From Candidatus Woesearchaeota archaeon (GTDB lineage: Archaea; Nanobdellota; Nanobdellia; SCGC-AAA011-G17; JACPIM01), in the NCBI GenBank assembly GCA_043817645.1, contig JBDRGP010000034.1, positions 15,020 to 79,019 on the forward strand: DNA of 64,000 bases, read 5' to 3'. Below are positions 1,863 to 47,778 of the stretch, piece by piece (positions within the stretch are counted from its first letter, which is position 1; each line of letters opens with the position of its first letter). The notes beneath the pieces are model-generated. The model was not told where the DNA came from, did no database searches, and saw only the letters and a program-made list of their open reading frames with translations. Position numbers and translations under genes: made by a program.

Positions 1863-1986
1863 TATTTAACAAAATCCAACAAGACCGCAAAACCAATTCT
1901 TCAAACTATAAAAAACACCGGGCGCAAAATAATACAACAAAACTAAAATAACAACTATTAAAATAATCCACGTTGTTATTTTCATT

Positions 1987-2985: not shown

Positions 2986-3110
2986 AACATCAATAAAAAT
3001 TTAATCGCTTTAAAAACATTATTATCTTTTAGTCTTCATGTACCAAAAACCTCTTTGATTTCTCTTAGTTTAAAGCAAAAATTCCAGTAACCACTCCAAA
3101 ATCAAGAACT

Positions 3111-3530
3111 CTAAAGTAGCTTTCTTATAACATCAATATACTCCTCAATCAAAACAATCAGTTTTTGTATATCTTTTTCATCTGATTCAACTTCTTCAAA
3201 ACCATAAAAAATCTCATGCCTTTCAAGCCTTAGCATATTCAGTTCGTTTAAAAATTTTGGTTCTATCTTATCAGAATATTTCTCTCGGATGTATACATAC
3301 AGGGCATAATGACTTTTTTCTTTAAATCCATCTCTAAACAACAAAGCCCTAGAAGAATGAAACATTGATGAATACAAATTAACACTAGCCATATCCAAAA
3401 CCTTTAAATTTATCAGTTTCTTGGCCTTTTCTAATTTTATTTCAGATATCTTTATAGACTTTCTTGCTTTTTCCAAACTAGGACTATCTTTCTTTAATAA
3501 CCCTCCCTCTATACATTCCTTAATATCCAT
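3111..3530 (-). CDS. HEPN-domain protein (partner of adjacent MNT nucleotidyltransferase)
   Basis: 139 aa all-helical small protein with an R..H-type motif (NMLRLERHEIFYG). It lies 1 nt downstream of an MNT gene, the usual HEPN/MNT pairing. Confidence 0.45.
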   Translation of the reverse strand: MDIKECIEGGLLKKDSPSLEKARKSIKISEIKLEKAKKLINLKVLDMASVNLYSSMFHSSRALLFRDGFKEKSHYALYVYIREKYSDKIEPKFLNELNMLRLERHEIFYGFEEVESDEKDIQKLIVLIEEYIDVIRKLL

Positions 3531-3531
3531 C

Positions 3532-4077
3532 TCACATCACAATAGGTTTTTCCCCATAAAGAGAAATACAATTTAAGATGACATCATAATAAAAAGCCTT
3601 ATCCTTCTCAGCTTTTTCTTTCCATTCCTTATAGCTATAATTAATTACTGTTAATTCTCTTTTAAGTTTTTTTTCACTTCTTATATCAAGTATCCTAATT
3701 TTATTTTTTGAAATTATGAGCATGTCTATATCGCTATTTTTATCATCATTCCCCCTTGCAACAGATCCATAGAGTATAATACTCAGAATACTTGAATTCT
3801 TTGATACAACTTCTTCCACAAATCCGCTAGAATTTATTTCAGATAATGAATAAAGGATTTTCATAATTCTCGTAAGAAAACCATCCTTAACTTTAAAAAG
3901 ATGACTTCGCCCAACATTTCTTTTTTTCAAAATACCTTGGGATAGCAAAAAATCTAAGGCTCCCTTCGCAGTGCTTGGCCCAACATTTGCCTTTCTAGCT
4001 ACATCTCTTATGCTATACTCCTCATTTTCTCTAATTATTGTTTTAACAACCTTCATCAAAGCATATTTGTTTATCAT
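3532..4077 (-). CDS. HTH + minimal nucleotidyltransferase (MNT) domain protein
   Basis: 181 aa with an N-terminal HTH-like region and the NTase signature ILYGSVARGNDDKNSDIDMLII (GS...D.D). Confidence 0.6.
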   Translation of the reverse strand: MINKYALMKVVKTIIRENEEYSIRDVARKANVGPSTAKGALDFLLSQGILKKRNVGRSHLFKVKDGFLTRIMKILYSLSEINSSGFVEEVVSKNSSILSIILYGSVARGNDDKNSDIDMLIISKNKIRILDIRSEKKLKRELTVINYSYKEWKEKAEKDKAFYYDVILNCISLYGEKPIVM

Positions 4078-4161
4078 GCAATATATAGAACATATGTCCT
4101 TTATAAAATTTTCTAAAAGAGATTGTCCTATAAATAGAACATATAGTCCCTATAAAAAACA

Positions 4162-4890
4162 TTATCCGCCAAATAATTCACCAGTTTTTCTAATTTTAAA
4201 CTTGATTACAGGCTCAACATAACCCAAATCCTTAGTAACCCCTTCAAAATCAAGAAAATCACCTTCTTCTCTACAACTCACTTTAAAACCCTCAAACAAA
4301 TCCTCATTCAAAAGACATTTTTTATCCTTTCCCCATTCAGAATATCTTTTATAAAGTCCATCAAAAACCTTCAGATCGAGATCTATCTCATAAGTATAAT
4401 TTAAGGTCTTATTATAAAAAATTCTTGGCACCAAACCCTCCTTCAGACTATCTACATTAGTAATTTGCTCTGGATAATAAACATTAATCAAAAGAGTATC
4501 ATCTTTTTCAATTATACCCACTTCATGTTTTCCTCTCAATTTAGGCCTCTTTTCAACTTCAAACACAAAATCTTTAGACATCTCCTTTTTAAGATTCTCA
4601 ATTAATCTATCATAAGGATTAAAATCCCACACACCATTCTCGGTTTCTAAAACTCCACCCTTGTTTAAAAACCCATCAAATCTTTTCAAAGTTTCAAACT
4701 TAATTCTCTGCTCAAAATAAAACACAGATTCCTCCATAAGTATATCTTCAAAAATCAAATCTTGACTTAACTTACCAACAGCTCTTGCTTTCGCATCAGT
4801 TACGACCTCATCTTTAACAACTAATGCAAATAAAACTATTCCTAATAACGCCAAAGCTAACATAGGCACAATAATTCCTCTCTTGTTCAT
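4162..4890 (-). CDS. pilin-like protein with class III (type IV prepilin-like) signal peptide
   Basis: N-terminus MNKRG|IIVPMLALALLGIVLFALVV: basic residues, then Gly, then about 20 hydrophobic residues. Last gene of the pilus operon; overlaps the upstream gene by 4 nt. Confidence 0.45.
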   Translation of the reverse strand: MNKRGIIVPMLALALLGIVLFALVVKDEVVTDAKARAVGKLSQDLIFEDILMEESVFYFEQRIKFETLKRFDGFLNKGGVLETENGVWDFNPYDRLIENLKKEMSKDFVFEVEKRPKLRGKHEVGIIEKDDTLLINVYYPEQITNVDSLKEGLVPRIFYNKTLNYTYEIDLDLKVFDGLYKRYSEWGKDKKCLLNEDLFEGFKVSCREEGDFLDFEGVTKDLGYVEPVIKFKIRKTGELFGG

Positions 4891-5399
4891 TCTGGTCTTC
4901 CCTCCAAAATCTTTAAAGTCACCGTTATGTCCTTTGCATTAGGTGAAGGAATAATCATCGCGCCCATATTTTTTCCTAAATTCTTTGGATCCAAAACATC
5001 AAATGCCTTAAAAGTTCCTTCTTCATATACTCCAACCCAGCCTGGTTTTGTAAACTCAATAGAAGGACTTCTCTCTTTCCTGTAGTAAAAAGAATAATAA
5101 AAATCAGAATCTTCAAAAAGACTATGAATTTCATTTTCTAACCTCTCAAAACTTTCCGGATCATCAAAACTCAAACTTACCAAATCACCAATATTAAGAT
5201 TCTTATCAACAGGTGTTTTTAATAAAGAAAGCAGCATATAGTCCAAAGAAACCTCACTCTCACTCTGAAGCACGCCCTTACCACCACTCTTAAACGCATC
5301 CATATTTAGCGCAACAAGAACAAGAACTATAATCACAACAATCAGAATAATAGAGGCGATAGCCATCAATCCAAATCCTAAAAACCCCTTTTTACCCAT
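4887..5399 (-). CDS. pilin-like protein with class III signal peptide
   Basis: N-terminus MGKKG|FLGFGLMAIASIILIVVIIVLVLVAL. Overlaps neighbours on both sides. Confidence 0.45.
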   Translation of the reverse strand: MGKKGFLGFGLMAIASIILIVVIIVLVLVALNMDAFKSGGKGVLQSESEVSLDYMLLSLLKTPVDKNLNIGDLVSLSFDDPESFERLENEIHSLFEDSDFYYSFYYRKERSPSIEFTKPGWVGVYEEGTFKAFDVLDPKNLGKNMGAMIIPSPNAKDITVTLKILEGRPE

Positions 5400-5805
5400 T
5401 CTTAATTAACACCTCAATCTTAACTAAGTTTCTTTCTAAAAAATAATGCCCCCCGCTACAAGCATAATTAAAATCACAAAAATCTCTATTAAAAGCGAAT
5501 TCTTCATTCTCAAAAAGCATTTTTTCACCAGAACTTATCTTAATACCGAATTTGTCCAAATCGAAACAATTCTTAAAGTTTATGACAGAAAAATCATAAA
5601 AAGAATTTTTTTCTAAACATTTTTGAGCATTAACAATAGCATACTCTAATTTAGCATCTTCAGTATTAATCTCAAAAACCATAATCTTGCTTATTACAAG
5701 CAGTATAATCAAAGAAAAAATCACTAAAAAAATAATTCTATAAATCCAAGTAATCTGCTCCTTAGCATGCGTAAACAACCCACCCTTCTTATTCATTTTT
5801 CTCAA
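5392..5805 (-). CDS. pilin-like protein with class III-like signal peptide
   Basis: N-terminus MRKMNKKGG|LFTHAKEQITWIYRIIFLVIFSLIILLVISKI, with several Cys in the mature part. The hydrophobic segment is less canonical than in the neighbours. Confidence 0.35.
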   Translation of the reverse strand: MRKMNKKGGLFTHAKEQITWIYRIIFLVIFSLIILLVISKIMVFEINTEDAKLEYAIVNAQKCLEKNSFYDFSVINFKNCFDLDKFGIKISSGEKMLFENEEFAFNRDFCDFNYACSGGHYFLERNLVKIEVLIKNG

Positions 5806-6127
5806 TTCTCAAATCCTTACCTCTTCTAAAAACCTTAAGATCAGAATCAAAAGAATTTATCTCTTTAACAACACCTTTTCTTGATATAAAAACAACATCT
5901 CCAGCCTTTTTTACATCATATTCATCATCAATAGCATAAACAACAGTAATATTTCCTTCCAGATTATTTAAAGCACTAAACAAAAAATAAAGATCCTCTT
6001 GCACAACCTTATTTTCTAACGCACTTCCATCTCTAAAAGAATCAATCCAAGCATAAGTTCCATAAATAATAACAGCAGCAATCAACAAATACATAACCCA
6101 ATACCCTAGAACATCAGTATCTGCCAT
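5789..6127 (-). CDS. pilus-operon membrane protein (single N-terminal TM, no KRG motif)
   Basis: MADTDVLGYWVMYLLIAAVIIYGTYAW... hydrophobic N-terminus. Sits inside the operon with gene overlaps. Confidence 0.3.
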   Translation of the reverse strand: MADTDVLGYWVMYLLIAAVIIYGTYAWIDSFRDGSALENKVVQEDLYFLFSALNNLEGNITVVYAIDDEYDVKKAGDVVFISRKGVVKEINSFDSDLKVFRRGKDLRIEKNE

Positions 6128-6130
6128 ATC

Positions 6131-6952
6131 TTAACCCTCTCCAAAACAAGGAAGCTCCGCACAAATACCAAGATCATTACCTTTTTTTTCAAGGTATACA
6201 AAACCAGCAGCAACCTGTTCTCTAGGACCTATATCCCATGGCCAAAAACCCTGTTCTTTTTTAGGAACAAATATACCTTTATAATTCATAATCGGGGTAT
6301 CCTCCTCAATATCAAAATAATCCCCATAAGCTCCAACTAAAAAGAACCCTTCTTGAAAACTCATTAAAAAAGAATAACGAATATCTTGTTCATACCAAAG
6401 CTGGCTTTTTTCAAGAGTAAATCCGTGCTTATCTTCATTTATAAATTTATTAACATATAAGGGCTTACAAGAAAGAACCTTCTCGCAACCAAATTCAAAA
6501 ACAGTATTAACTTCATCTCCAGCATCTATATCTGGTCTAGAATAAGATATCAAACTGAGTCTTGAACACATACAAGCACACGACCTATCTTCAGAACATC
6601 CAGCACCAATCGGTTTATGTGCATAAATATAAGCATCATGTTCTTTGGATCCATCAGCAAACCCCACAATCTTATCATATCCTTTATCAAAAAACAAGAA
6701 AGTTACACCCTCTTCTAAAAAAATATCAGATTGATCAAATGTCCTCTCCCTATCTCTAAGCAACCCATCAATAACCCCTAAAAATCTATCTAACTGAGTA
6801 ACATACTTATCTTCATCGATTTTATCCTCAGTCTCCAAAAGCCCGAGCAGATCAAAAGTCTTATCAAACAAAACAAGAACCACCAAAGCACTAATCACTA
6901 TTACTCCTACAATCATAATCATAGACCCAGAAGTACCTCTTTTTCCAATCAT
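6131..6952 (-). CDS. pilin-like protein with class III signal peptide, Cys-rich mature domain
   Basis: MIGKRG|TSGSMIMIVGVIVISALVVLVLF; mature region contains GAGCSEDRSCACMCSRL and further Cys. Confidence 0.45.
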   Translation of the reverse strand: MIGKRGTSGSMIMIVGVIVISALVVLVLFDKTFDLLGLLETEDKIDEDKYVTQLDRFLGVIDGLLRDRERTFDQSDIFLEEGVTFLFFDKGYDKIVGFADGSKEHDAYIYAHKPIGAGCSEDRSCACMCSRLSLISYSRPDIDAGDEVNTVFEFGCEKVLSCKPLYVNKFINEDKHGFTLEKSQLWYEQDIRYSFLMSFQEGFFLVGAYGDYFDIEEDTPIMNYKGIFVPKKEQGFWPWDIGPREQVAAGFVYLEKKGNDLGICAELPCFGEG

Positions 6953-7008
6953 AAAAATAAAAAAGAATTAAGAAATATATAAATTAGTTGGTTTGTTTAC
7001 ACTAATTC

Positions 7009-7413
7009 TTAAGCGTTTTTCTTCCACGTCTCCTGTCCTTCCACTGCATTAGTACAAGCTCCATAAGAACAACCAACACTTATAGGAGTGTCCTTACAAT
7101 AATAATCATTAGGCACGCCATCCATCTCCTCAGCGTTTCCATCTCCATCAATATCCAATCTAAACGGAGTATCACAATATGCAGTTCTCTGACCTGTTGG
7201 AACACCAGCCGCAGCCTCACACCTCTGTTCACATATTTCTCTAGCCAAACTTAAATCAGTTCCAGCAGTTGCACCAAAAAATACACTCCTAATGCTCTTA
7301 CTTAAGTTACTTGTACCACCTAAAAAGAAAAATGCAACAACAAGCAAAACAATTACAACCAGAACAATTATAATTAAAGTATTTATAGGCATTCCTTGAC
7401 CTTTTTTATTCAT
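7009..7413 (-). CDS. pilin-like protein with class III signal peptide, Cys-rich
   Basis: MNKKGQG|MPINTLIIIVLVVIVLLVVAFFFLGG, followed by 8 Cys (CEQRCEAAAG..YCDTP..YYCKD..GCSYGAC). Confidence 0.5.
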   Translation of the reverse strand: MNKKGQGMPINTLIIIVLVVIVLLVVAFFFLGGTSNLSKSIRSVFFGATAGTDLSLAREICEQRCEAAAGVPTGQRTAYCDTPFRLDIDGDGNAEEMDGVPNDYYCKDTPISVGCSYGACTNAVEGQETWKKNA

Positions 7414-7467
7414 TAAGCATCACCTTCTTTTTGATTATTTTATATAAATATCCAACATATATAAAGC

Positions 7468-9090
7468 TTACTGTGTTTGCACCATAGCATTTACTATAGC
7501 CATAGAATCTGGTTTATACAGTCCCCGGGTTACTGCCAAACTAAAAACAACTTCAGTAGAGGTAGGATCTCCTTCGCCCTGCACAGCCTCTGCATGTATT
7601 TTATAAAAAACAATGTTGGCAGGAAAACTATCAAGAGAACCACAAAGATCGTCTTTCCTATATCTGAGTTTCGCATCTTCTTCACTAGAAAAACCACCGT
7701 GCACACTCAAGATATAATCACCATCAGGAGCACCACAAATAACATTCCCAGCGAAATCCCGAATCCTATAATTCAATTGGAATCCCTCCTCTAACTCAAG
7801 ATAGTCCAAATTATTCCATTCTTCAGGGTTCTCCTTAATATACCCTCCAGAATCACTACCAGTTATACCATTCGCAACCGGACTTTTGGTGTCATCAGTT
7901 TTAATTTCTAAAAGATATCGAATTTCCCCTGGATATAGCTCTACATCACCAGTATAAGTCCACTTATAGTCATCACCTAACAGTTTAGTCGAATCAAAAC
8001 GCCCTACAAATTCATACTCAAAAATCATCTTAGAAAACTTAATTCTCCTAGAATATCCAGGATCTCGAGTATACACTTCTTTCAATTTAGCAGCAGCAAC
8101 ACCACCAACATCCAATCCCAAAACCAAAACATCTTCATACAAATTTAAAGCCTCGTTCTCCCTTCCTAATTTTTGCAAACTCTCTGCTGCACCCAAGTAA
8201 TATTCGGCCTTATCTTCTTCATCTTGCAATAAGTTTAATATTTGTTTATACTTTATCAAAAGTTGATCATACTGACCAGTTCTTTTAAATTCTACAATTT
8301 CACACTTAACACCATCAAAAATACTAAACTTAGTTCTAGCCAAGTTCTCGCATTCAGGCCATAAAATATGATATCTCCTAAGTTCTAACTCAAAATTATC
8401 CTTATCAATCTTCTGTCCCACCGCTAAAAGTCTAGAATCAATGTCTATAGAGGGCGCCTTTTTTTCTTGAGCCTCTTGATAAAATTTCTGTGCATCCCCA
8501 TATCTCTTCTCATCCATAGCTTTATCTCCAGCTTCAATCAATCTCCTCCATTCCCCCTCCAAAGCCACCTCTGCATGTTTTTCTCTTTCTTCTTTTGCTT
8601 TCATCAAATATCCGTATACATCTCTCCTCGTTTTTTCATCACACTTTTCTCTTAATCCATTATACTCTTCTTCCTTTAGCTTAGTTTTTCCAGAACGATA
8701 TTTTGTATTATAATCACTTAAACTCAAACCGGGTTTTAAGACCCCTTCTTCAACACCACCACAAATATCTAAATAATGCTCAAACTCCTTCTGAGCTAAA
8801 TCATATTTACTTTCACCCATAAGATCGTTTCCTCTACTAATCAAGCTATTAAGATACCCACCAGGATCACTCCTGATAAACTCCAAATCCTCCTCTTCTT
8901 TCGGAGTAAATAAACCAAAAAAATTCTTAAACTTTTCAACTCCAGATTTGCTTTCTTCAGTCACAGTTTTAATAGTTCCTCCTTCAGCTTCATTAGCGCC
9001 ACGATAAAGGAATACAACAACAATAATTACAGCTACAACTCCAACTAATAAACTAAAAAGATTATTCCAATGAAATTCTCCTCTTTTCAT
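7468..9090 (-). CDS. large pilin-like/pilus-associated protein (class III-like N-terminus, helical-repeat middle, beta-rich C-terminus)
   Basis: MKRG|EFHWNNLFSLLVGVVAVIIVVVFLY; 540 aa with a TPR-like helical region (YGDAQKFYQEAQEK, AEYYLGAAESLQKLGRENEALNLYEDVL). Confidence 0.4.
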   Translation of the reverse strand: MKRGEFHWNNLFSLLVGVVAVIIVVVFLYRGANEAEGGTIKTVTEESKSGVEKFKNFFGLFTPKEEEDLEFIRSDPGGYLNSLISRGNDLMGESKYDLAQKEFEHYLDICGGVEEGVLKPGLSLSDYNTKYRSGKTKLKEEEYNGLREKCDEKTRRDVYGYLMKAKEEREKHAEVALEGEWRRLIEAGDKAMDEKRYGDAQKFYQEAQEKKAPSIDIDSRLLAVGQKIDKDNFELELRRYHILWPECENLARTKFSIFDGVKCEIVEFKRTGQYDQLLIKYKQILNLLQDEEDKAEYYLGAAESLQKLGRENEALNLYEDVLVLGLDVGGVAAAKLKEVYTRDPGYSRRIKFSKMIFEYEFVGRFDSTKLLGDDYKWTYTGDVELYPGEIRYLLEIKTDDTKSPVANGITGSDSGGYIKENPEEWNNLDYLELEEGFQLNYRIRDFAGNVICGAPDGDYILSVHGGFSSEEDAKLRYRKDDLCGSLDSFPANIVFYKIHAEAVQGEGDPTSTEVVFSLAVTRGLYKPDSMAIVNAMVQTQ

Positions 9091-9093
9091 ATC

Positions 9094-9261
9094 TTAACCA
9101 AATCCTAAGAAATTTATAAAAGTATCTATCAAATCAAACACTATCTCCATAACAGATGAAAAACCCATTAAAGCCATGGCCCCCACTAAAACAACTACAA
9201 CTACAACTAATATGAGAGTTAACACCTTAGTTATAGCTATTTCGCCTTTATTCCCTATCAT
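9094..9261 (-). CDS. unannotated mini-pilin (55 aa) with class III signal peptide
   Basis: Hand translation: MIGNKG|EIAITKVLTLILVVVVVVLVGAMALMGFSSVMEIVFDLIDTFINFLGFG. Not in the ORF track (under 60 aa). Stop is 3 nt from the next start. Confidence 0.4.
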   Translation of the reverse strand: MIGNKGEIAITKVLTLILVVVVVVLVGAMALMGFSSVMEIVFDLIDTFINFLGFG

Positions 9262-9401
9262 CTTAAAGTAAATTTATCTAAAAACCCCACACCTTTTTGA
9301 GTTAAAGCCATTATTATCAAAACCACAATTATCACTATCACTAAAAATATCAAAAGCTCTCCAATTATTTTTAATTCTAAACCTTTTTTATTCAAAGTCA
9401 T
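9258..9401 (-). CDS. unannotated mini-pilin (47 aa) with class III signal peptide
   Basis: Hand translation: MTLNKKG|LELKIIGELLIFLVIVIIVVLIIMALTQKGVGFLDKFTLR. Its stop TGA overlaps the ATG of the 55-aa ORF (ATGA). Confidence 0.4.
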   Translation of the reverse strand: MTLNKKGLELKIIGELLIFLVIVIIVVLIIMALTQKGVGFLDKFTLR

Positions 9402-10263
9402 CACACCTCTGTAAAATTTCTATAGCTCTCTCTGAGCCAGAAGCAATAAGCAAAGCAGGATAAAACTCAGTAGCGCGTGCACCAAGAGCATAAACATCCC
9501 ATCCTACCAAAGCAATCCCAACAGGCCCAAGCAATTTTGTACTAGCTTTCGTCCCAAGCGCAGTGGCCACTTTTCTAGCAGCCACCCCATAACCAACTCT
9601 GCCAGCAGCGCCCCCTGCAGCAGCCGCAGGCGCCTCTAGCTGGCCAACATCACCACCAAGTAACTCTTTCCAAAACTCACTTTTCTTATTAGCCACAAAG
9701 AGCACATAAAAATTATTTTGAGTATCAATCCTAATGTTTCCATCGCCCAAATCCAACCTACTTTTTTCAACCTTAGTAAAAAATTCTGAGTAAGTTACCT
9801 TGCCAGTGGGTATCTTTTCATTATCTAAAAAATCTTGTAAATCATCCAGCGGAATCTCGCCTTCAAAACCATTACTACTATACCTCCGAATAGAACAAAT
9901 ACGACAATAAAGATCAGAACCAAACCAATCAATATCACTTAAAAAATCTATCTCCCCTTCGCCAAACTGCCACCAACAAGCGTACATATCTCTAGCAATC
10001 TCCTCCAAAACCTGTCTCTTAACTAAAGTTTCACTAGTCTCTCTTTTTGTCTCACACTTCAACTTAAATGGAGACTCCTTACCAATATAAGGTAATTTAG
10101 TACTATAATGAAGCTCAACACTTGTTCTACAAGTAGCTGGATCATATTTACCAGTACCAAAAGATTCATACCATTTAATAGCTAACAAAACAAGTGCAAC
10201 TAAAGCAACTACAGCAAGAAGCACTCCAGCAAACTCCTTCCAAGCCAGTCCTCTTTTATCCAT
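9388..10263 (-). CDS. pilin-like protein with class III-like signal peptide
   Basis: MDKRG|LAWKEFAGVLLAVVALVALVLLAI; mature part has several Cys and an Ala/Gly-rich C-terminal stretch. Confidence 0.4.
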   Translation of the reverse strand: MDKRGLAWKEFAGVLLAVVALVALVLLAIKWYESFGTGKYDPATCRTSVELHYSTKLPYIGKESPFKLKCETKRETSETLVKRQVLEEIARDMYACWWQFGEGEIDFLSDIDWFGSDLYCRICSIRRYSSNGFEGEIPLDDLQDFLDNEKIPTGKVTYSEFFTKVEKSRLDLGDGNIRIDTQNNFYVLFVANKKSEFWKELLGGDVGQLEAPAAAAGGAAGRVGYGVAARKVATALGTKASTKLLGPVGIALVGWDVYALGARATEFYPALLIASGSERAIEILQRCDDFE

Positions 10264-10375
10264 TCAGAGCACCTTTAAAATAGATATTATACACTAAAAA
10301 AAGAATCAAACAAATTGTAATAACAAATATTATAAAACTAACCAAACTAACACCTTGCAAACCCTTTTTCATCAT
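10256..10375 (-). CDS. unannotated mini-pilin (39 aa) with class III signal peptide
   Basis: Hand translation: MMKKG|LQGVSLVSFIIFVITICLILFLVYNIYFKGALNG. Its ATG overlaps the stop of the upstream 62-aa ORF (ATGA), and its own stop overlaps the ATG of the 291-aa pilin. Confidence 0.35.
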   Translation of the reverse strand: MMKKGLQGVSLVSFIIFVITICLILFLVYNIYFKGALNG

Positions 10376-10560
10376 CTTAATCTTGCTTTTTCCCTGCTCC
10401 TCAAATTAACAACCAAAATTATAATTCCAATAACAATTACGATCCCATTATAAACAGAACCAGAACTAATTTTACTCAAACCTTCAAAACTATCTTCAAA
10501 AAAAGGAAACAAACCAACCGCTATAACCACTAGTCCCAAAAAAACATTTAACCATTTCAT
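10372..10560 (-). CDS. small two-TM membrane protein, pilus operon
   Basis: 62 aa with two hydrophobic helices; overlaps genes on both sides. Confidence 0.3.
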   Translation of the reverse strand: MKWLNVFLGLVVIAVGLFPFFEDSFEGLSKISSGSVYNGIVIVIGIIILVVNLRSREKARLR

Positions 10561-11207
10561 TCTGTCCCCCTAATCCACTTCCATCCAAACACAACAACAA
10601 AGATAGCAGCAACCAAGGCCAGAATATTCAAAACCGACATTACAAAAAACGGACTTAAAGGCAGATAATAAAACAACCCACTCAATTGATATCCGCCTTC
10701 ACTCTGCATCCAAAACCAAAACAACAAATAAGCCAATCCAACAACAGTTCTTGTAGCATTACTTCCCTTCAAGGCTGCAAACAAGCCGATTATTATCAAC
10801 AAAATGAATATCAAACCAAGAAATCCGCCAAACAAACCTCCAAAAATATCTCCTAAACCGCAAACTAAAGAAAACCCGCTTGTAGCTTCCCACCTAACAA
10901 TACCTATAGCCAAAGCAAAAGCAATAACCACTGCCAGAATATCACTTTTACTTCTAGCAGGACCCTTAAAAGCCCAATGACCAAAAACAAAAAACACTAC
11001 AAATAAAACAAAGAATTCAAACCATTCAGCATAATTATCACATAAATTTGAAATAAATCCAAACCCAAATCCCTCGCCAGAACCAAATCCTCCACCATAA
11101 TCATATCCATAATCAAAATAATGGGTTTGTCCAAAAACAATAGGTAACAAACTAAGCAAGCTAAAAATCACTAAAAGAATCACCATCTTTTTGCTTAACA
11201 TATTCAT
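10557..11207 (-). CDS. polytopic membrane protein with Gly/aromatic-rich N-terminal segment, pilus operon
   Basis: 216 aa. Signal-like N-terminus, then YFDYGYDYGGGFGSGEGFGFGF, then at least 5 TM helices; contains a GLGDIFGG segment. Confidence 0.35.
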   Translation of the reverse strand: MNMLSKKMVILLVIFSLLSLLPIVFGQTHYFDYGYDYGGGFGSGEGFGFGFISNLCDNYAEWFEFFVLFVVFFVFGHWAFKGPARSKSDILAVVIAFALAIGIVRWEATSGFSLVCGLGDIFGGLFGGFLGLIFILLIIIGLFAALKGSNATRTVVGLAYLLFWFWMQSEGGYQLSGLFYYLPLSPFFVMSVLNILALVAAIFVVVFGWKWIRGTE

Positions 11208-11236
11208 ATTTCACCCTGCAAATTATTTAAAGCTTT

Positions 11237-13477
11237 CTACACTCCAGTACCCCTGGCAACCTGCACAACCCCTCCAGCTAAAACACTGAATATAACTATA
11301 CTAATCAAAGCAATCAAAAAATACAATCCAACAGCTATAAACAAATTCCTACCTATAACATACCTATGAGTTACTCTATCAATCCCATTTTCTATACCAC
11401 TACTTAAAATACTCAAAATGATAACAACCTCAACAACAAACAGCCCAACAACAATTTGAAATTGATAACCGGGGATAATATCAGTAATAGTCAAAATTTT
11501 AGTGATATTCTCAAAACCGCCAAATCCTGCCGCTGCAGCACCTTCTTGATCTCCCATCTCGCTCAAAATCAAAGTCAAATTGTTAATAATAGAAATCATC
11601 ATACTAGTCACACCAACTACGATACCAGCAATCATCGGAGTCAAAAAAGTAATTTGCCCTTTCATACTACTCAAAATATCAGCCAACAAATCTTTCAATC
11701 TCTCTGTAATACTCCTAACTCTATTAACATAATCAGAAATTGTTATCAAACTTTTAGCAACTATTTGAGGTCCTTTCTTAGCACTCTCAACTAAAACCTT
11801 CATACTACTTTTTATCAGATTGCTAGGAAAATAAACTATGGACCCTCTGTGTGAATCAAAAATAGCATCCTTAACACTCATCCCCATTTTTCTAATATTT
11901 GCATCAGTCATTCTTAAGAAATCGCCACTTGGAGTTCCCTGAACATTTTCAGCCACACTACTAATCGCTCTCTCAACAGGCAACCCATCACCTACCCTAT
12001 TACCTAACTGAAAAATAGCACCAGAAAACTCTCTTTCCATATCAGAAGTTCTTTTACGAATCCTAATCAACTGTTTACTCCAAATATAATAATAAGTCCC
12101 AATACCCAAAGCAATCCCTAAAGGAATAAACAAACTCAAGATCATACTAAAAACACTATAAGGGCCAATACAAGTTTCATCACACTTATAATCTAACAAC
12201 TTGCTCTCAAGAATACTTCCTTCAAACAAAGTATAATCAAAACCTTGAGGAGTAGCATAAAACAGAAGCAAGGGTATCAATCCAATTATAACTAATATTC
12301 CCCCAATAAAAAGAGCAAACATCCCAGGACTAAATCCCATCCCGCCAACCTTCATTTTAGTAAACTCTTCAAACTCAGGATGCTCTTTCAGAATATCTTC
12401 ACTTCCGTACCCAGTAGGTCTTTTCTCGAGTAAATTCATTCCATAAAAATAAACAAAAACAGGCAAAAATAAATTATACAAAAGAGCTAAATGCCACCAC
12501 TTAACCAAACCTTCTAAAAATCCGCTCATCAAAGGAAAAACAACCAGCCCCAAAACAGGCAAGATCACACCCAACATATAAACCATAGTAATAGGGCTTC
12601 TCAAATCATGAGCATAATGCAACATCTTTTCATAAGTCCCATTCAAGATAACTTCCAAAGCCTTCTCTAATTGGCCTATTCTTCTTTCGTCACTAGGCTC
12701 ATACAAACTCCCTTCAATCAAATGCATACTTTCAACAAACTCTAAACTATGGTCCTTCCACCCAACTAAATAAGAATCTAAACTTTCTTTAATACTCATA
12801 AACTTACCATTCTCCACATCCCAAAGAATTTTCCTCAAATCCAAAGCTAAAGGAGCGCCAACATGCTCTCCAGCAAATTTAATAGCATGCTCCAAATTGC
12901 TTGTATGTCTCATATACATAACCATATACAAAATACAAAGCACCATTTGGTTACTTGCCCTTAAACGCCATCTCGCAGCAATCCTCAAAGGATACTTAGA
13001 TAAAAGCCCCATCAACAAAGCACCAAACAACACAATAATCAACGGAATAAAGACTACACCCAAGCTAACACTTTTCAATCCGCCTTCAGGACTAAAAAAC
13101 CCAACAGCGTCTCCACTAAAAAGATACATCCCAACCCCAGAAAATACCCCAAGCAAAACAATCAAAAACACCAAAATAGCAGCAAAACTAGTTGCTCCTT
13201 CAACAGTCATATCCAAATGTGCAATATCAATTGCTCCCTGTATCTTTTCTCTATCTTTCTCTTTTGGTTTAACTCTTAAAGTCCTCTCAGCAAATCTGCA
13301 TAACTTCTCATATCTGGAAACATATCTCTCTAAATTTTCTCTTCTAAAAATCTCATACTCCTGAGAAAAAGAATCTCCTGGAAAGTGCTCCATCTCATCA
13401 AGTTCTATACTTCTACCCAACCTTTTCTCAGCCTTTCCCAAGATTTCCTTAATTTCCTCACCAGTAATTCTTCTCAT
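11237..13477 (-). CDS. TadC/PilC/FlaJ-family membrane platform protein of type IV pilus/archaellum-like systems
   Basis: 746 aa polytopic membrane protein immediately downstream of the secretion ATPase. Two large cytoplasmic helical domains are each followed by TM clusters, as in T2SS-F proteins. Confidence 0.6.
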   Translation of the reverse strand: MRRITGEEIKEILGKAEKRLGRSIELDEMEHFPGDSFSQEYEIFRRENLERYVSRYEKLCRFAERTLRVKPKEKDREKIQGAIDIAHLDMTVEGATSFAAILVFLIVLLGVFSGVGMYLFSGDAVGFFSPEGGLKSVSLGVVFIPLIIVLFGALLMGLLSKYPLRIAARWRLRASNQMVLCILYMVMYMRHTSNLEHAIKFAGEHVGAPLALDLRKILWDVENGKFMSIKESLDSYLVGWKDHSLEFVESMHLIEGSLYEPSDERRIGQLEKALEVILNGTYEKMLHYAHDLRSPITMVYMLGVILPVLGLVVFPLMSGFLEGLVKWWHLALLYNLFLPVFVYFYGMNLLEKRPTGYGSEDILKEHPEFEEFTKMKVGGMGFSPGMFALFIGGILVIIGLIPLLLFYATPQGFDYTLFEGSILESKLLDYKCDETCIGPYSVFSMILSLFIPLGIALGIGTYYYIWSKQLIRIRKRTSDMEREFSGAIFQLGNRVGDGLPVERAISSVAENVQGTPSGDFLRMTDANIRKMGMSVKDAIFDSHRGSIVYFPSNLIKSSMKVLVESAKKGPQIVAKSLITISDYVNRVRSITERLKDLLADILSSMKGQITFLTPMIAGIVVGVTSMMISIINNLTLILSEMGDQEGAAAAGFGGFENITKILTITDIIPGYQFQIVVGLFVVEVVIILSILSSGIENGIDRVTHRYVIGRNLFIAVGLYFLIALISIVIFSVLAGGVVQVARGTGV

Positions 13478-13653
13478 CTTTTTTTCCTATCCCTTTTTCT
13501 TTTTCCGCCAACGCTTTTTCCAAAAGGGTTGTTTAAATAGTATTCAATCAAGTATAGAACCAAATCACTCTCAGATTGTCTTTTAACAAAATCCAATTCT
13601 AAGAGTTTTTTCTTAACCTCTTTTTTAATTCGTATAGAAGTATCTTCAGACAT
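13474..13653 (-). CDS. unannotated 59-aa ribbon-helix-helix-like protein, translationally coupled to platform gene
   Basis: Hand translation: MSEDTSIRIKKEVKKKLLELDFVKRQSESDLVLYLIEYYLNNPFGKSVGGKRKRDRKKR. Beta-strand plus two helices resembles RHH (CopG/Arc). Its stop TGA overlaps the platform ATG (ATGA). Confidence 0.4.
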   Translation of the reverse strand: MSEDTSIRIKKEVKKKLLELDFVKRQSESDLVLYLIEYYLNNPFGKSVGGKRKRDRKKR

Positions 13654-13728
13654 AAAAAAACATTTAATCTTTAATTATATAAATGTATGCATAGTATACC
13701 ATGTATGAGGTGTATGCAGAAAGATAAC

Positions 13729-15999
13729 TCAACCCAATCTCTTCTTCTTAATTTCTCTTTTAACCCAAGTATCCCACTCAAAAAAGATTCTTTTATGATC
13801 CAAGTGACCAATCTCTTCTTTTAATTCATCAGAAACCCTATGAAACTCATCATTCGCAGAGATCACAAAAGGAGCCTCAAGTAGATCCAACATCTTAGCT
13901 TTATTCGCATAATCAACAATAGCCTTTTTCATCTTAGCTCTTACTTGTATATTCTCCCAAATAGCATCCCAATCGCCCACAAATTCTCTAACATTCCCAG
14001 CAATTCTTTTCAAAGTTTCACTATCACCATTAATCAATTCATCAGTTGGCACTAATAGATCCTTCTTAGCATCATACTTCATCAAATCAACAAAACCATG
14101 TTCTCTTAAAGGATCATCTTCCCAATGTTTCCTTACCTCCGTAATACTCCTCACTCTTCTAAGGCTATGTAAACCATCAGCACTCTTAACAGGATTTGTA
14201 ATAACAATTATATCGGTAGCCTTAAAACTAGTCCTTGGAACTCCCAAATCATTCACAACCCTATCAAAAACACCATAAGGAGAATCAGCATGCAAAGTAC
14301 CAGCAACAACATTAGCCATAGCACCAATTCTCATAGCTTCATAGAGTGCTTTTGCTTCGATGCTCCTAATTTCACCCACAATCAAAGCACTATCCCCCAT
14401 TCTTAAACTTGTTCTAATACCTTCATCCGCAGCAATCTCAGTACCACCAGTAGTTAAAGCACTCCTAACTTTCATCTGTTGTATATTATAACCTAAATCT
14501 CTTAAAGCGCCCGTGGGTAATTCCAAAGTGTCCTCCAGGGTAATCACTCTATATCGTCTCATAATCTCAACTAAAAAACTCCCCAAAACTGAAGTTTTTC
14601 CAGAACTTCTAGTCCCAGCAACTAATAAAGTTCTAGCACCATCAATCAAAAAACTCATCAAACCAGCACCAAGAGGATCAATCATTTTATTATTAATAAA
14701 CAAAGGCAATGTCCAAGGTTTATCTCTATGTCTCCTTAAAGAAAAAGCCAACCCATGCGGATTCAACGGATTTGAAATAATAGCAACTCTTGCTCTAACT
14801 CCAGGAATCTCAAGCTCAGTATCCAAAATAGGATTAGCCTCGTCCAAGGGCCTTGCACTTAATAATCTAAACTTAGATGCCCATCCTTCAGAATCCTCAA
14901 TACTCGGAACAATATTAGTAACACAGTCACCATAATCGGCATGAACAATAAAAATAGGATTTTTACCAACAGGACTGTTTACAGAAATGTCTTGCACTTT
15001 AGGATCCTGTAACAGAATCTCAACCATCCCAAATCCAATAGTATACCTAACAAGTATTTTCGCTAATTTTCTAATCCTTCCAATATCAAGATCATAACCC
15101 TTATGCTCGGCCAGTTCCATCAACAAATCTCTCCCAATATTCAAAAAAGTCCTTCTCATTCTATCCGGCTCTAAAAACTCTTCTTCCTTAGGTCTATGCT
15201 CAGCTAAAACAGTTCTTGCTAAATCAATTAGTTCATACTCATCCTCTGTAACTTTTAATTCTGGAGGAACAACATGATACATTAACTTAATATCATCCTT
15301 TAATTTCAGTAGAGTCACCGTATTATCAAAAACAGCATAACTGTCAACAAATTCTGCATCCAAAGGAATAGTGCTCATCAACTGAGTATACATAAAATCA
15401 GGGCTAACTACTGGCCTAAAAACTTCAACATAGAGCCCCCTATCTCCAATTCTATGTCCTGCAAGTCTATTCTTCACTCTCTTAATCAAACTCGTATTCT
15501 CTAAATTATTTTTAATATACTGCAAAACATCAATATACCTTCTCTCATCTTCTGCTTGAGCAGGATCACCAATATCCTCAACCCTAATGTTCCCTTCTCG
15601 GATTAATCTTTTTAATTCAACATAAGCACCAACCGGATCACTTCTTAACAAATTATAAATAACATATTGGATAGTTGCATACTTATTAGATACATCAGTA
15701 CCATAACCCAGCTGACTCAAACTAAGTAATCTTTTCTGCTTAGTTAAATTACTAAAAACAGTAGCAACCTCAACCAACAAGGCAGTTTGATCTCTAGAAT
15801 AATTAAAGTTTCTTTTCTGGTTCAAAATAATCCTGGCAACAGAAGGCATTTCAGCCAAATAACCAATAACCCTAACCATCACTAAAGGATTTCCTTCAAT
15901 ACTGGGAGAATACGGCCATGTATTTGCATCAATCTTAAGAACCTCTTCTCCACCCTCTAATACAATCCCATATCCACTCCCTTTTTTAGAAACTGCCAT
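13729..15999 (-). CDS. type II/IV secretion family ATPase (PilB/FlaI/VirB11-like) for type IV pilus assembly
   Basis: 756 aa; Walker A GTRSSGKTSVLGSFLVE, then VITLEDTLELP and the C-terminal region typical of GspE/FlaI hexameric ATPases. Confidence 0.8.
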   Translation of the reverse strand: MAVSKKGSGYGIVLEGGEEVLKIDANTWPYSPSIEGNPLVMVRVIGYLAEMPSVARIILNQKRNFNYSRDQTALLVEVATVFSNLTKQKRLLSLSQLGYGTDVSNKYATIQYVIYNLLRSDPVGAYVELKRLIREGNIRVEDIGDPAQAEDERRYIDVLQYIKNNLENTSLIKRVKNRLAGHRIGDRGLYVEVFRPVVSPDFMYTQLMSTIPLDAEFVDSYAVFDNTVTLLKLKDDIKLMYHVVPPELKVTEDEYELIDLARTVLAEHRPKEEEFLEPDRMRRTFLNIGRDLLMELAEHKGYDLDIGRIRKLAKILVRYTIGFGMVEILLQDPKVQDISVNSPVGKNPIFIVHADYGDCVTNIVPSIEDSEGWASKFRLLSARPLDEANPILDTELEIPGVRARVAIISNPLNPHGLAFSLRRHRDKPWTLPLFINNKMIDPLGAGLMSFLIDGARTLLVAGTRSSGKTSVLGSFLVEIMRRYRVITLEDTLELPTGALRDLGYNIQQMKVRSALTTGGTEIAADEGIRTSLRMGDSALIVGEIRSIEAKALYEAMRIGAMANVVAGTLHADSPYGVFDRVVNDLGVPRTSFKATDIIVITNPVKSADGLHSLRRVRSITEVRKHWEDDPLREHGFVDLMKYDAKKDLLVPTDELINGDSETLKRIAGNVREFVGDWDAIWENIQVRAKMKKAIVDYANKAKMLDLLEAPFVISANDEFHRVSDELKEEIGHLDHKRIFFEWDTWVKREIKKKRLG

Positions 16000-16080
16000 T
16001 TTACCTCTTAGTAATACTCACATAAGTTTTAACAAACAATATAAATATAAATCATAAGATTAAATAACTTTCTATACAAT
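16000..16080. promoter_or_regulatory. divergent promoter region with A/T-rich TATA-like boxes
   Basis: Intergenic sequence between the pilus ATPase (-) and the coiled-coil gene (+) contains aatataaatataaat TATA-like elements. Confidence 0.3.
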
Positions 16081-16467
16081 ATGGCAGAAGCAACATACCA
16101 GGATCCGAACCAGGTATTCTCAGAAATAATCAACAGAATGCGTGCTTTAGAAAGCAAATACAATCTTCTCGGAGAAAGGCTCTTAGTAGTAAATCAGAAC
16201 ATGATATCAGAATTCAAAAAAAATTCAACAGAGTTCCGGGCAACAAATGATGATTTAAAAGAAATAAGAACAGAACTATTTAAAACAAAAGAAACAATTA
16301 AAGACCTTTCAAGAGAACTAAAATTTTTCGCAACCAAAGAGCACATAAAAGCATTAGAAAAGTATATTAAGATATGGGACCCTATGAAATTCATAACACA
16401 AGAGGACCTAGACAAATTCCTTGAAAGGGGAGGCCTAGTAAAAAAGAAAAAAGATGGTAGAACCTAA
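16081..16467 (+). CDS. coiled-coil protein
   Basis: 128 aa, predominantly heptad-like helical (LKEIRTELFKTKETIKDLSRELKFF). Confidence 0.4.
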   Translation: MAEATYQDPNQVFSEIINRMRALESKYNLLGERLLVVNQNMISEFKKNSTEFRATNDDLKEIRTELFKTKETIKDLSRELKFFATKEHIKALEKYIKIWDPMKFITQEDLDKFLERGGLVKKKKDGRT

Positions 16468-17008
16468 AACTAACCAAACAAGAAGGATGATGGAAGAAGA
16501 ATCTCCTGCTCCAGGCCCATCTAGTGGTACAGACCTAGGACCATCGGCTCAAAGTCCAGATCTAGAACCTTCTGTTTTATATTCACCAGCACCTTCACCA
16601 GGACAAGAAGCACAACTGGCAACACAAGCCCAACAACAAACAATGCCTCAACAACCAGTATCTTTAGGTTATAATCCTACAGCAATAGATGAAGTAGAAG
16701 AACTAGTAGAATCCGTAGTAGAAGAAAAATGGCGCTCCTTCATGGAAAGCTTTGGCGACATAGCCCTTTGGAAAGAAAGAACAAGAATTGATTTAGCTGC
16801 AGTAAAACAAGAACTTATAAGAATCCAAACCAGATTTGATAATCTTCAAAAAGCAGTTCTAGGAAGAATACAAACTTATGATAAAAACATAACAGAAGTC
16901 ACATCAGAAATAAAAGCACTTGAACAGGTATTCGAAAGGATCCTTAATCCATTAACTTCAAACATAAAAGAACTAGATAAAATTACTAAAGAATTAAAAA
17001 AGAGATAA
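16454..17008 (+). CDS. protein with Pro/Ser/Gln-rich disordered N-terminal half and coiled-coil C-terminal half
   Basis: 184 aa: ESPAPGPSSGTDLGPSAQSPDLEPSVLYSPAPSPGQEAQLATQAQQQTMPQQP, then a heptad region. Overlaps the upstream gene by 14 nt. Confidence 0.4.
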   Translation: MVEPKTNQTRRMMEEESPAPGPSSGTDLGPSAQSPDLEPSVLYSPAPSPGQEAQLATQAQQQTMPQQPVSLGYNPTAIDEVEELVESVVEEKWRSFMESFGDIALWKERTRIDLAAVKQELIRIQTRFDNLQKAVLGRIQTYDKNITEVTSEIKALEQVFERILNPLTSNIKELDKITKELKKR

Positions 17009-17557
17009 CTACTTCTTCGTACCCACAGCTTTCACTAAAAAATAACTCACAACAAAAATGAATATAATGCCCAGAACCTTAGGATTAAAAATTACTCTTC
17101 TAGCCTCTGCACCAATACCTGTCTGGCTAGCAGAAGGAAAACCCACAAAACTAGGAAATATTTTTCCAACACCAATCAAAAAAATAATAACAACAATAAC
17201 TATAACAATTACAGTAATAGCAGGCGTACCTTTAATATAGCTCGTAATATCTTCCTGCTTCATTCCAAGAAGCATAACCCCTATAAAAATAATAGCCATA
17301 ATAATAAAAAACAAAACAAAAAAAGGAACAATTAACGTCAATAAATTCCTTAAATCAGCAACCAAGACAAAAAGCAGAGCCAATATAAAAGCTATCAATG
17401 CGTGTATACCCCTATCCTCTCCAAGTATACTATACCTGTTAAAAAGCGCATAAATTATCAAAAAAACAAAGAAAAATACAAATAAGGGGATTAAATAAGT
17501 AAGCACCCCAAAATCTAATAACGTTGCCATTTTATTTCTTAAAGATTGCGTCTCCAA
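17009..17557 (-). CDS. membrane protein, member of tandem paralog triplet
   Basis: 182 aa, 4-5 TM helices. N-terminal segment LDFGVLTYLIPLFVFFFVFLIIYALFNRYSILGEDRG resembles the two upstream paralogs. Confidence 0.4.
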   Translation of the reverse strand: METQSLRNKMATLLDFGVLTYLIPLFVFFFVFLIIYALFNRYSILGEDRGIHALIAFILALLFVLVADLRNLLTLIVPFFVLFFIIMAIIFIGVMLLGMKQEDITSYIKGTPAITVIVIVIVVIIFLIGVGKIFPSFVGFPSASQTGIGAEARRVIFNPKVLGIIFIFVVSYFLVKAVGTKK

Positions 17558-18068
17558 AATTCTTAAATGTTTCCCCAGCAGGTTTATCTTTTCCTTCCCT
17601 TGTCACAAAGAAAACAATAATAATCAGTACAGCCAAAAACGTCAAAACTCCTTTGGTCTCAGAACTCAATCCAGCAAAGATGTTAGGAATACCATACCTT
17701 GACCAGTAGCTCTCTCCAAAAATCCATAACACCACAATAACAGCCAAAACAGCAGCAAGTCCTTTCATCCCAGAAGACCATCCGTAATCTTCTCCAACAA
17801 AAACACCAACAACTAAAAGTATCATCAACAATACCACAATCAACAAAGCAACATTAGGTAAAAATCTATTGATCGTGCTAACCACAACGCCATTTCTTAT
17901 CAATAAAAAGCCAAAAACAAGCGCAATGATCGCATCAATATTCTTCTTACCTCCAAGTATTTTTGTAGATTGCATGATAGCAAACACAATAGTAAAGATT
18001 AATACAAACGGCAAAACTATATCAAACAGAGAATCATTTCCCAATAAAAAATTTAAATCAACAGCCAT
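17532..18068 (-). CDS. membrane protein, member of tandem paralog triplet
   Basis: 178 aa: FDIVLPFVLIFTIVFAIMQSTKILG, paralogous to 18068-18622 (FFDIVLPFILVFTLVFAILEKTRILGEE). Confidence 0.45.
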   Translation of the reverse strand: MAVDLNFLLGNDSLFDIVLPFVLIFTIVFAIMQSTKILGGKKNIDAIIALVFGFLLIRNGVVVSTINRFLPNVALLIVVLLMILLVVGVFVGEDYGWSSGMKGLAAVLAVIVVLWIFGESYWSRYGIPNIFAGLSSETKGVLTFLAVLIIIVFFVTREGKDKPAGETFKNFGDAIFKK

Positions 18069-47751: not shown

Positions 47752-47778
47752 TTTATTTTTAAAAACAAATCAATTTAT

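Follow-up and report, generated by a model that had tools for sequence, protein, structure and literature searches.

We analysed a predicted type IV filament locus in a 64,000-nucleotide stretch of DNA (the window) from a Candidatus Woesearchaeota archaeon (NCBI GenBank assembly GCA_043817645.1, contig JBDRGP010000034.1, positions 15,020 to 79,019 of the forward strand; coordinates below count from the first letter of the window). The closest described systems are those of Hamm et al. (2024, Nat Commun, PMC11291902), who report a pair of conserved loci of type IV pilus-like kind across cluster-2 DPANN archaea and list Woesearchaeota among the lineages. In the portion of that paper available to us, the loci encode CpaF, TadC, and adjacent coiled-coil proteins, with FlaF and PilA in "Locus 1," and proteomics detected several of the locus proteins of Ca. 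Nanohaloarchaeum antarcticus. The coiled-coil proteins of Ca. Nanohaloarchaeum are associated with a sigma-1-like fold. The present locus agrees with that portion in its taxon range, its CpaF-like ATPase, its TadC-like platform, and its coiled-coil neighbours (here at 16081-17008), and because it fits the description given there, the existence of the machine is not new. An earlier interpretation made from the DNA letters alone (the sequence-only reading) had described a pilus-like machine here without knowing of these published loci; the machine itself holds up, but such loci were already on record for Woesearchaeota and further cluster-2 DPANN archaea in the available text of PMC11291902. What that text does not describe is an array of 11 to 12 prepilin genes in fixed order, with mini-prepilins and hypervariable subunits. 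Work on archaeal type IV filament superfamily (TFF) systems (Makarova 2016; Denise 2019; Sivabalasarma & Albers 2026 preprint) does not name Woesearchaeota. For the prepilin array, its fixed order, the mini-prepilins, and the hypervariability, no description was found in the literature that we searched.

The loci for the Aap and Ups pili of Sulfolobus and the PilA/PilB-C pili of Haloferax contain one to few pilins of recognised arCOG or Pfam families. The present locus resembles them in its archaeal ATPase, in having a single long platform, and in its K/R-G leaders of the PibD type, whereas its 11 to 12 pilin-like proteins are unclassified, its ATPase is terminally extended, and its platform is invisible to Pfam. 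These pili serve adhesion and cell-cell contact (PMC4858521). Epd and Tad systems, which act in attachment, have two split platform genes with one T2SSF domain each and a second nucleoside triphosphatase (NTPase) of the FlaH/TadZ type (PMC6668835). Like Epd of Methanococcus maripaludis and Tad (Flp; System 1), our locus has a TadA/CpaF-related ATPase, several pilin genes, and very short, helix-dominated pilins; unlike them, it has one platform of 746 residues, no second NTPase in the cluster, and a TadA score of 113 against a 373-bit cutoff.

Bacterial class III leaders have a conserved Glu5, an N-methylated residue, and PilD-type cleavage, and the machines of diderms add secretins; the comG operon runs in the order ATPase, platform, pilins. 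Our locus follows that order and, like the pseudopilus of the type II secretion system (T2SS), the minor-pilin sets of type IVa pili, and comG, appears to combine one major subunit with four or five minor subunits in a row. The bacterial subunits, however, have no sequence or fold relationship to those of the array.

Our analysis indicates that the locus is likely a chromosomal operon whose products make up an archaeal machine of the type IV filament (pilus-like) class, with conservation across Woesearchaeota. We read it in this way because an ATPase of the FlaI/CpaF/GspE type adjoins a platform with the PilC/GspF fold, followed by a series of genes encoding a short basic leader and a helix. 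The window (G+C content of about 34%) also encodes topoisomerase VI subunits A and B, an RPA-like OB-fold protein, and a Holliday-junction resolvase; because these are archaeal chromosomal genes, the window is best assigned to the host chromosome of a DPANN archaeon and not to a mobile element. Relatives were collected with the platform as query in a scan of one genome per prokaryotic species, which returned at least 582 species genomes or loci, and gene order was compared in the best 80 loci. These related loci are given L-numbers where they must be told apart, L084 being the closest relative. Almost all of the 80 belong to Woesearchaeota or "Nanoarchaeia," and they include the complete genomes CP010426 (GW2011_AR20) and CP066683.

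Assembly ATPase and platform protein

The predicted motor of the machine is encoded by two genes:

13729-15999, minus strand: secretion/assembly ATPase of FlaI/CpaF/archaeal-GspE type, 756 aa, with the Walker A stretch AGTRSSGKTS
11237-13477, minus strand: predicted inner-membrane platform of diverged GspF/PilC/FlaJ-TadC type, 746 aa, with about eight hydrophobic (transmembrane) segments

The ATPase scored 54.3 bits against Pfam T2SSE (cutoff 24.9), which places it among TFF-type (PilB/GspE/FlaI) ATPases. Its best NCBIfam matches were FlaI (9.8e-36) and TadA (1.5e-32), and sequence matches in the PDB, spanning residues 238 to 650 approximately, were to Archaeoglobus GspE (2oap, 4.4e-26), CpaF (3e-20), and Sulfolobus FlaI (1.5e-16). 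The sequence-only reading had also called this protein a secretion ATPase, and these matches to archaeal GspE, CpaF, and FlaI specify the type IV filament kind. Because its best matches are FlaI, TadA, and GspE while its NCBIfam scores fall far below the equivalog cutoffs (113.2 bits against 373 for TadA, TIGR03819), the protein falls in the archaeal/Tad branch of the assembly ATPases and outside the named families, TadA/CpaF included. It is longer than FlaI by about 185 residues N-terminally and about 100 C-terminally, and a recent preprint argues that the terminal domains of such ATPases are subsystem specific. Full-length homologues with about 60% identity occur in Woesearchaeota, Pacearchaeota, and Nanoarchaeia. 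NCBI names the identical protein "type II/IV secretion system ATPase subunit," and the gene is located on an ENA metagenome contig.

Since FlaI is the best NCBIfam match and some sources label homologues "FlaI," the cluster might be taken for an archaellum, the rotary motility filament. The score against the FlaI equivalog (NF058587) is 123.6 bits, however, far from the cutoff of 550 expected for an archaellum ArlI. In addition, no array protein contains an archaellin domain (PF01917), and Pfam recognises no ArlH, ArlF, ArlG, ArlCDE, or ArlX in the cluster. The sole KaiC-like gene of the window (23727-24842) lies about 8 kb away and was discarded as a FlaH-like partner, being syntenic in 0 of the 80 loci. 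With its defining components absent, the archaellum explanation is effectively refuted.

The same layout of ATPase, platform, and multiple pilins could instead suggest a competence-type pilus with a comG-like plan, by which a genome-reduced symbiont would take up DNA and scavenge nucleotides. DPANN archaea are described as having reduced genomes and limited metabolic capacity, and the ATPase does match ComGA weakly (1.5e-11). That match amounts to 43.8 bits against a cutoff of 300, far below those to FlaI, TadA, and GspE, and the scan of window genes recognised no ComEC- or ComEA-like gene. Nor is the subunit hypervariability described below needed for DNA binding or explained by it. More generally, the VirB11, TrbB, ComGA, and PilT models score the ATPase much lower than the FlaI and TadA models do, and it does not cluster with ATPases of type IV secretion or DNA uptake, the outcome that the sequence-only reading had named as counting against a pilus. 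We regard a DNA-uptake pilus as very improbable.

Some orthologues of the pilus ATPase reach 1259 to 1280 aa through an intein with a LAGLIDADG homing endonuclease (P0002, P0012, P0036, and others; positions 6221-10000 of L086).

The identity of the platform was reached through its fold. T2SSF matches, all sub-threshold, appear in 8 of 35 homologues and correspond to residues 490-605 of the window protein. An AlphaFold2 model built from these 35 homologues (pLDDT 77.5, pTM 0.71) matched the EpsF and OutF domains in Foldseek with a probability of 1.00, and because of this match we identify the 746-residue protein as the platform. Judged by its modelled structure and its roughly eight transmembrane segments, we read it as a long, single-chain, diverged FlaJ/TadC-type platform with a cytoplasmic domain of the GspF/PilC type; a TadC/FlaJ-like platform had been proposed from the letters. 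A single platform gene of this kind is present here and in all 80 related loci, which differs from the two-gene (TadB plus TadC) arrangement of Tad and Epd. More than 2,500 homologues at about 50% identity exist, and almost every source that names them calls them "hypothetical."

An array of prepilin-like genes

Downstream of the platform, the array consists of twelve co-directional open reading frames (ORFs) running from 10375 down to 4162. Among its members are the following (a slash marks the predicted cleavage point):

10256-10375, minus strand: 39-aa mini-prepilin, helix only, found by motif scan (MMKKG/LQG...)
9388-10263, minus strand: 291-aa prepilin-like protein (p291), Cys-rich, with a Gly/Ala-rich C-terminal part (MDKRG/LAW...)
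9258-9404, minus strand: 45-48-aa mini-prepilin, found by motif scan (MTLNKKG/LEL...)
9094-9261, minus strand: 55-aa mini-prepilin, found by motif scan (MIGNKG/EIA...)
7468-9090, minus strand: 540-aa prepilin-like protein at the first hypervariable "large subunit" position (MKRG/EFH...)
7009-7413, minus strand: 134-aa prepilin (p134) with 6 Cys and a DxDxDG loop (MNKKG/QGMPINTL...)
6131-6952, minus strand: 273-aa prepilin-like protein at the second of the hypervariable "large subunit" positions, containing 8 Cys (MIGKRG/TSG...)
5789-6127, minus strand: 112-aa protein, first gene of the terminal block, with an N-terminal hydrophobic helix and no K-G leader here
5392-5805, minus strand: 134-137-aa prepilin-like protein, second gene of the terminal block, with a 13-residue spacer before the helix (MNKKG/GLF...; 31 loci)
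4887-5399, minus strand: 170-aa prepilin-like protein, third gene of the terminal block (MGKKG/FLG...)
4162-4890, minus strand: 242-aa prepilin-like protein, fourth gene of the terminal block (MNKRG/IIV...; 30 loci)

Every array protein has a single hydrophobic segment, located at the N terminus, and several are rich in cysteine (4 to 8 residues). Because of this topology and the cysteine content, the proteins fit an extracytoplasmic, helix-anchored placement.

To identify leaders we applied a FlaFind-like rule of our own, in place of published predictors, that required a [KR][GA] pair no later than residue 16 and, after it, a strongly hydrophobic segment, and scanned all possible starts in six frames of the 64 kb. 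Ten genuine ORF starts matched, all of them inside 4162-10375. Outside the array a single real gene start fits the motif (42023-44149, MQEKA/), the other matches being internal alternative starts or short ORFs. The motif is thus present in 10 of 11 array genes versus about 1 of 56 genes elsewhere (Fisher p = 5e-10, with approximate gene counts). In 65 loci of relatives, the motif occurred in 330 of the 1151 ORFs that lie downstream of the platform, compared with 59 of 5594 ORFs elsewhere. Together, the window scan, the counts in the 65 loci, and the Fisher test rule out chance as the source of the cluster, and by this rule both data sets contain class III signal-peptide subunits. The consensus leader is M-N-K-K-G, mostly 4 to 6 residues long, with K at position -3 in 89%, G (80%) or A (20%) at -1, and a preference for Q, D, or E at +1.

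Class III leaders had been claimed for at least 11 genes. Ten fit strictly and an eleventh (5392-5805) fits more loosely, but the twelfth (5789-6127) has no K-G leader; leaders of the MNKRG or MHKKG type are found in 19 of 30 relatives' members of its family. Overall, ten or eleven of the twelve genes show the substrate pattern of archaeal A24 prepilin peptidases. The description of Cys-rich or TPR-like mature domains was borne out for cysteine, whereas the tetratricopeptide repeat (TPR) match of the 540-residue protein stayed below the Pfam threshold (21.8 bits, cutoff 30.1).

Family searches with full-length pilin-like sequences drifted through the shared N-terminal helix and merged p291 with p134, and they were rerun with the N terminus masked. 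In the masked profile search p291, which is usually the first large gene of the array, was present in single copy in 39 loci, with conserved cysteines at 96, 120, 123, and 287. The p291 family profile found no solved relative and no Pfam assignment, with DUF6861 matches in 5 of 33 members. The mini-prepilins surround this gene. The 39-residue ORF is missing from the ENA gene calls for the identical contig and from the called genes of L001, yet equivalents with a mature length of about 34 residues precede p291 in 25 loci; by its recurrence in sequence, it is a conserved small ORF overlooked by gene callers. Equivalents of the 9258-9404 mini-prepilin, of about 50 residues, follow p291 in 29 loci, and a pair of mini-prepilins at the 9094-9404 position also occurs in L006, L023, and L039. 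At the other end, the 242-residue protein closes the array in nearly all relatives, with RPA directly next to it in many.

Conserved gene order and divergent subunits

The array has the same gene order after the platform in 29 of the 32 loci in which at least 7 kb of downstream sequence was present. First comes an optional pair of genes for 216- and 62-residue proteins, followed by proteins of about 38 and about 290 residues (p291) and one or two of about 50, each with a K-G leader. A variable protein of about 195 to 560 residues comes next, followed by one of about 125 residues (p134, with a K-G leader) and often by one of about 60 residues with a K-G leader. The series ends with a variable protein of roughly 150 to 680 residues and the terminal block of about 125, 155, 165, and 245 residues, after which RPA follows directly in many loci. 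The number and size spread of the pilin-like genes had struck the sequence-only reading as unusual. Because the same order recurs in 29 of 32 full loci, this number is instead the norm of the lineage and part of a conserved Woesearchaeota ground plan.

The protein sequences tell a different story for motor and subunits. Compared with L084 and L086, the platform is 80% and 74% identical and the ATPase 85% and 79% identical (partial alignments, 335 and 546 of 756 residues). The 5-transmembrane (5-TM) paralogues, coiled-coil, 216-residue, TraB/PrgY-like, and RPA proteins encoded around them range from 61 to 85%. In contrast, p134 is 71% and 42% identical, and all other pilin-like positional orthologues are 16 to 36% identical (global alignments). 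The 540-residue protein is only 24 to 26% identical to its positional orthologues where the platform is 74 to 80% identical, and its position is filled by proteins of 195 to 560 residues in relatives. The 273-residue protein is 16 to 19% identical to its own positional orthologues, with roughly 150 to 680 residues at this position, and the 242-residue protein shares 36% identity with its L086 orthologue. The mini-prepilins (mature length about 34 to 54 residues) tend to precede the large subunits that diverge very fast between species.

Because all subunits except p134 diverge extremely fast while the motor stays conserved, we infer that the array is surface exposed and subject to diversifying pressure, most likely through contact with host cells or surfaces or through use as a virus receptor.

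A candidate major pilin

The subunit p134 differs from its neighbours in conservation. Its first 65 residues or so, from the leader through the helix into the Cys domain, hardly vary among 26 homologues, and variation is found in the C-terminal third. Over the first 30 mature residues, pairwise identity in 32 species was 0.53 for p134 versus 0.16 to 0.30 at other array positions. The gene is set off by spacers of 54 and 56 nt; it is preceded by TATA-like elements and a GGTGA ribosome-binding site and followed by a T-run. These could be promoter and terminator signals of its own, a possibility for which such elements are weak evidence in an AT-rich genome. A profile of the family retrieved 717 representative clusters at E<=1e-3, nearly all of 100 to 170 residues, and the protein is "hypothetical" wherever a source names it. 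Based on the N-terminal conservation, the separate spacers and signals, and the large family of uniform size, p134 is probably the major pilin.

In an AlphaFold2 model of p134 (pLDDT 80.9), the N terminus forms a long helix and the six cysteines lie in a small domain. Between conserved cysteines, at residues 82 to 95 approximately, lies the loop FRLDIDGDGNAEEM (D-x-[DN]-x-D-G). Because this conserved loop gives EF-hand matches, which are weak and limited to 5 of 53 members, it may be a Ca2+ site. The T2SS pseudopilin GspG has a Ca-binding-type loop, which that of p134 recalls.

Proposed assembly and weight of the evidence

We propose that an A24 peptidase encoded elsewhere in the genome would cut off the leader, after which the ATPase, acting through the platform, would pull the processed subunits from the membrane and stack their N-terminal helices into a surface filament. 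p134 would be the main filament subunit. By analogy with bacterial minor pilins, the products of the terminal four-gene block may prime assembly or form the tip. An accessory role or exposure at the tip is probable for the helix-only mini-prepilins and for both large hypervariable subunits, and the latter may be adhesin-like. Use of the filament for attachment is plausible.

Several observations weigh against this interpretation. The platform falls below every sequence-profile threshold in Pfam and NCBIfam, a profile search against PDB sequences returned nothing for it, and a second GspF-like repeat is unsupported (hhalign probability of 0.4 between the N- and C-terminal halves). No array protein matches any pilin or archaellin family in Pfam or NCBIfam, the p134 model has no Foldseek fold match in the PDB, and its family profile finds no solved pilin. 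With no match to a known family or fold, the label "pilin" is drawn from the signal motif, the topology, the gene context, and the way in which the proteins are conserved. The upstream synteny of the 5-TM and coiled-coil genes, described below, could in part reflect a conserved chromosomal backbone, because the unrelated RPA gene is equally syntenic. Finally, no A24 peptidase was detected in the 64-kb window by Pfam on multi-transmembrane proteins or by tblastn with a woesearchaeal A24 peptidase, in line with what had been noticed from the letters, nor in the approximately 0.4 kb beyond the left edge of the window.

Relatives bear on this last point. In L071, an ORF at 21254-22123 (minus strand) with a GGGD[AS]K motif scores 58.3 bits against Peptidase_A24 (cutoff 26.5). 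Partial ORFs in L043 (21296-22078, minus strand) and L033 (21301-21960, minus strand) have the same motif, weaker Peptidase_A24 matches, and sub-threshold matches to archaeal A24 C-terminal domains. All three sit about 3 to 4 kb past the RPA gene that flanks the array. Because L071, and more weakly L043 and L033, encode such an enzyme near the array, the lineage does have an A24 peptidase. Of two candidates within the window, the 216-residue membrane protein has G-x-G-D at residue 117 but no A24 Pfam match, and the 5-TM paralogues were rejected, having no GxGD and no second conserved Asp that was apparent.

The subunits themselves raise the question of whether a long filament is made at all. 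The same ATPase and platform could build a short pseudopilus, or a membrane-anchored assembly, that displays or secretes the 291-, 540-, 273-, and 242-residue class III-signal proteins as functional surface proteins in place of a long adhesive pilus, in the manner of the Sulfolobus bindosome or a T2SS pseudopilus. Most array members are indeed far larger or smaller than typical pilins, and the missing pilin family and fold matches noted above would be expected on this account. Archaeal class III signals are also known on non-pilin substrate-binding proteins, which a 2026 preprint (10.64898/2026.04.22.720090) proposes to functionalise type IV filament machines, and the ATPase does match BasE of the bindosome (Bas) with an E value of 1.4e-16. 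That BasE score (NF053672) is 60.4 bits against a cutoff of 1000, however, below the scores for FlaI and TadA, and Pfam scans found no substrate-binding or enzyme domain in any class III protein, so that the locus does not qualify as a bindosome. The conservation of p134 is also the pattern of a polymerising major pilin. We therefore consider a display or secretion assembly unlikely, though less so than a DNA-uptake pilus, and retain the filament as the preferred interpretation.

Distinctness and implications

Woesearchaeota are abundant DPANN archaea of groundwater and sediment, and we know of no cultured representative. The locus may be a distinct archaeal type IV filament subsystem outside current classifications, with the array serving as a host- or surface-recognition organelle of episymbionts; we offer this tentatively, at somewhat less than even confidence. 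The features that would set it apart are a profile-invisible platform, a terminally extended ATPase, a fixed array of about 12 genes, and one conserved, possibly Ca-binding major pilin. If this is true, the hypervariable subunits would be specificity determinants, comparable to the tail fibres of phages.

The locus is a candidate surface or host-contact organelle in at least 582 species genomes, for which p134 provides a handle and the two large subunits are candidate specificity determinants. A groundwater study assigned piliated ultra-small cells to bacteria of the candidate phyla radiation (CPR) on the premise that DPANN archaea lack components of type IV pili. If the locus is such a recognition organelle, the presence of pili would not suffice to place ultra-small groundwater cells among the CPR bacteria. 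Profile-based surveys will also undercount DPANN type IV filament systems, because the platform and p134 are annotated as hypothetical, the pilin-like proteins match no family, and the 39-residue ORF goes uncalled. The advance is one of anatomy and scope; the ATPase, platform, and class III subunits are standard biology and introduce no new principle. The locus is of value because its fast-diverging array may be an organelle by which uncultivated episymbionts contact their hosts, and because it exposes a blind spot in annotation.

Operon layout and accessory genes

All of the ORFs named in the sequence-only reading were found on the minus strand within 4162-15999. It gave gaps of 0 to 4 nt or ATGA overlaps; most junctions measure -14 to +3 nt, but four gaps measure 75, 29, 54, and 56 nt. 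The interval 4162-15999 also proved too short as the extent of the module, since the conserved block reaches further upstream, to 18622. Three small or membrane protein genes accompany the core:

13474-13653, minus strand: basic 59-aa ORF that separates the ATPase and platform genes and encodes a small, lineage-specific protein
10557-11207, minus strand: 216-aa Gly/aromatic-rich polytopic membrane protein with 5 hydrophobic segments and a hydrophobic, signal-like N terminus
10372-10560, minus strand: 62-aa protein with two transmembrane segments, optional and accessory, co-occurring with the 216-aa protein

The 59-residue ORF had been called ribbon-helix-helix (RHH)-like. The ORF is present, and the label depends on a weak NCBIfam match to the BfmA N-terminal model (E 0.028), by which it is possibly RHH-like. 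It is kept only in L084 (79% identity over 39 residues), and most of the other loci in which ATPase and platform genes were both found have the stop of the former directly against the start of the latter. The Gly/aromatic-rich polytopic membrane protein noted earlier is likewise present; it has no family match in Pfam or NCBIfam, occurs in 8 of 32 full loci, and is 75 to 79% identical in close relatives, thus not hypervariable. From this distribution, the 59-residue ORF and the 216/62-residue membrane pair are sub-lineage accessories and not core components.

Upstream of the ATPase, two further groups of genes recur:

16081-17008, plus strand: two overlapping predicted coiled-coil proteins, 128 and 184 aa, divergently transcribed, with weak matches to coiled-coil-type families
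17009-18622, minus strand: three paralogous 5-TM proteins, 182, 178, and 184 aa, directly upstream of the ATPase on the same strand

The coiled-coil genes are at the same position in 59 of 80 loci with about 44% identity, rising to 61 to 80% in close relatives. The 5-TM genes hold their position in about 50 of 80 loci; they belong to no Pfam family and share a first-helix motif, LPFlLvFti.FAilEKT.ilG. Beyond them, 39 of 80 loci retain in synteny the genes for a TraB/PrgY-like protein and for a membrane protein of 212 residues.

Other features of the window

Two DDE_Tnp_1 transposase genes were found at 18720-19550 and 36847-37881, both on the plus strand. The first splits the neighbourhood of the 5-TM and TraB/PrgY-like genes, which is contiguous in the close relatives examined. 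A pair of genes for a nucleotidyltransferase (NTP-transferase) and a HEPN protein (3111-4077, minus strand) is inserted between the last pilin-like gene and RPA, and a ParE-toxin pair lies within the pilin array of L086 (16225-16690). Toxin-antitoxin-like modules thus seem to land in the hypervariable array region.

The KaiC-like ATPase (371 aa) is followed directly by a 2121-residue right-handed beta-helix/NosD repeat protein, the two spanning 23727-31210 on the plus strand; the related loci contain no counterpart of the KaiC-like gene. A second beta-helix protein, at 42023-44149, has a signal-anchor-like N terminus (MQEKA/AYW). The GC skew of the plus strand is strongly negative (-0.4 to -0.5) over blocks of minus-strand genes (1-16000 and 38000-50000) and about 0 over plus-strand blocks; the coding strand is markedly richer in G than in C.

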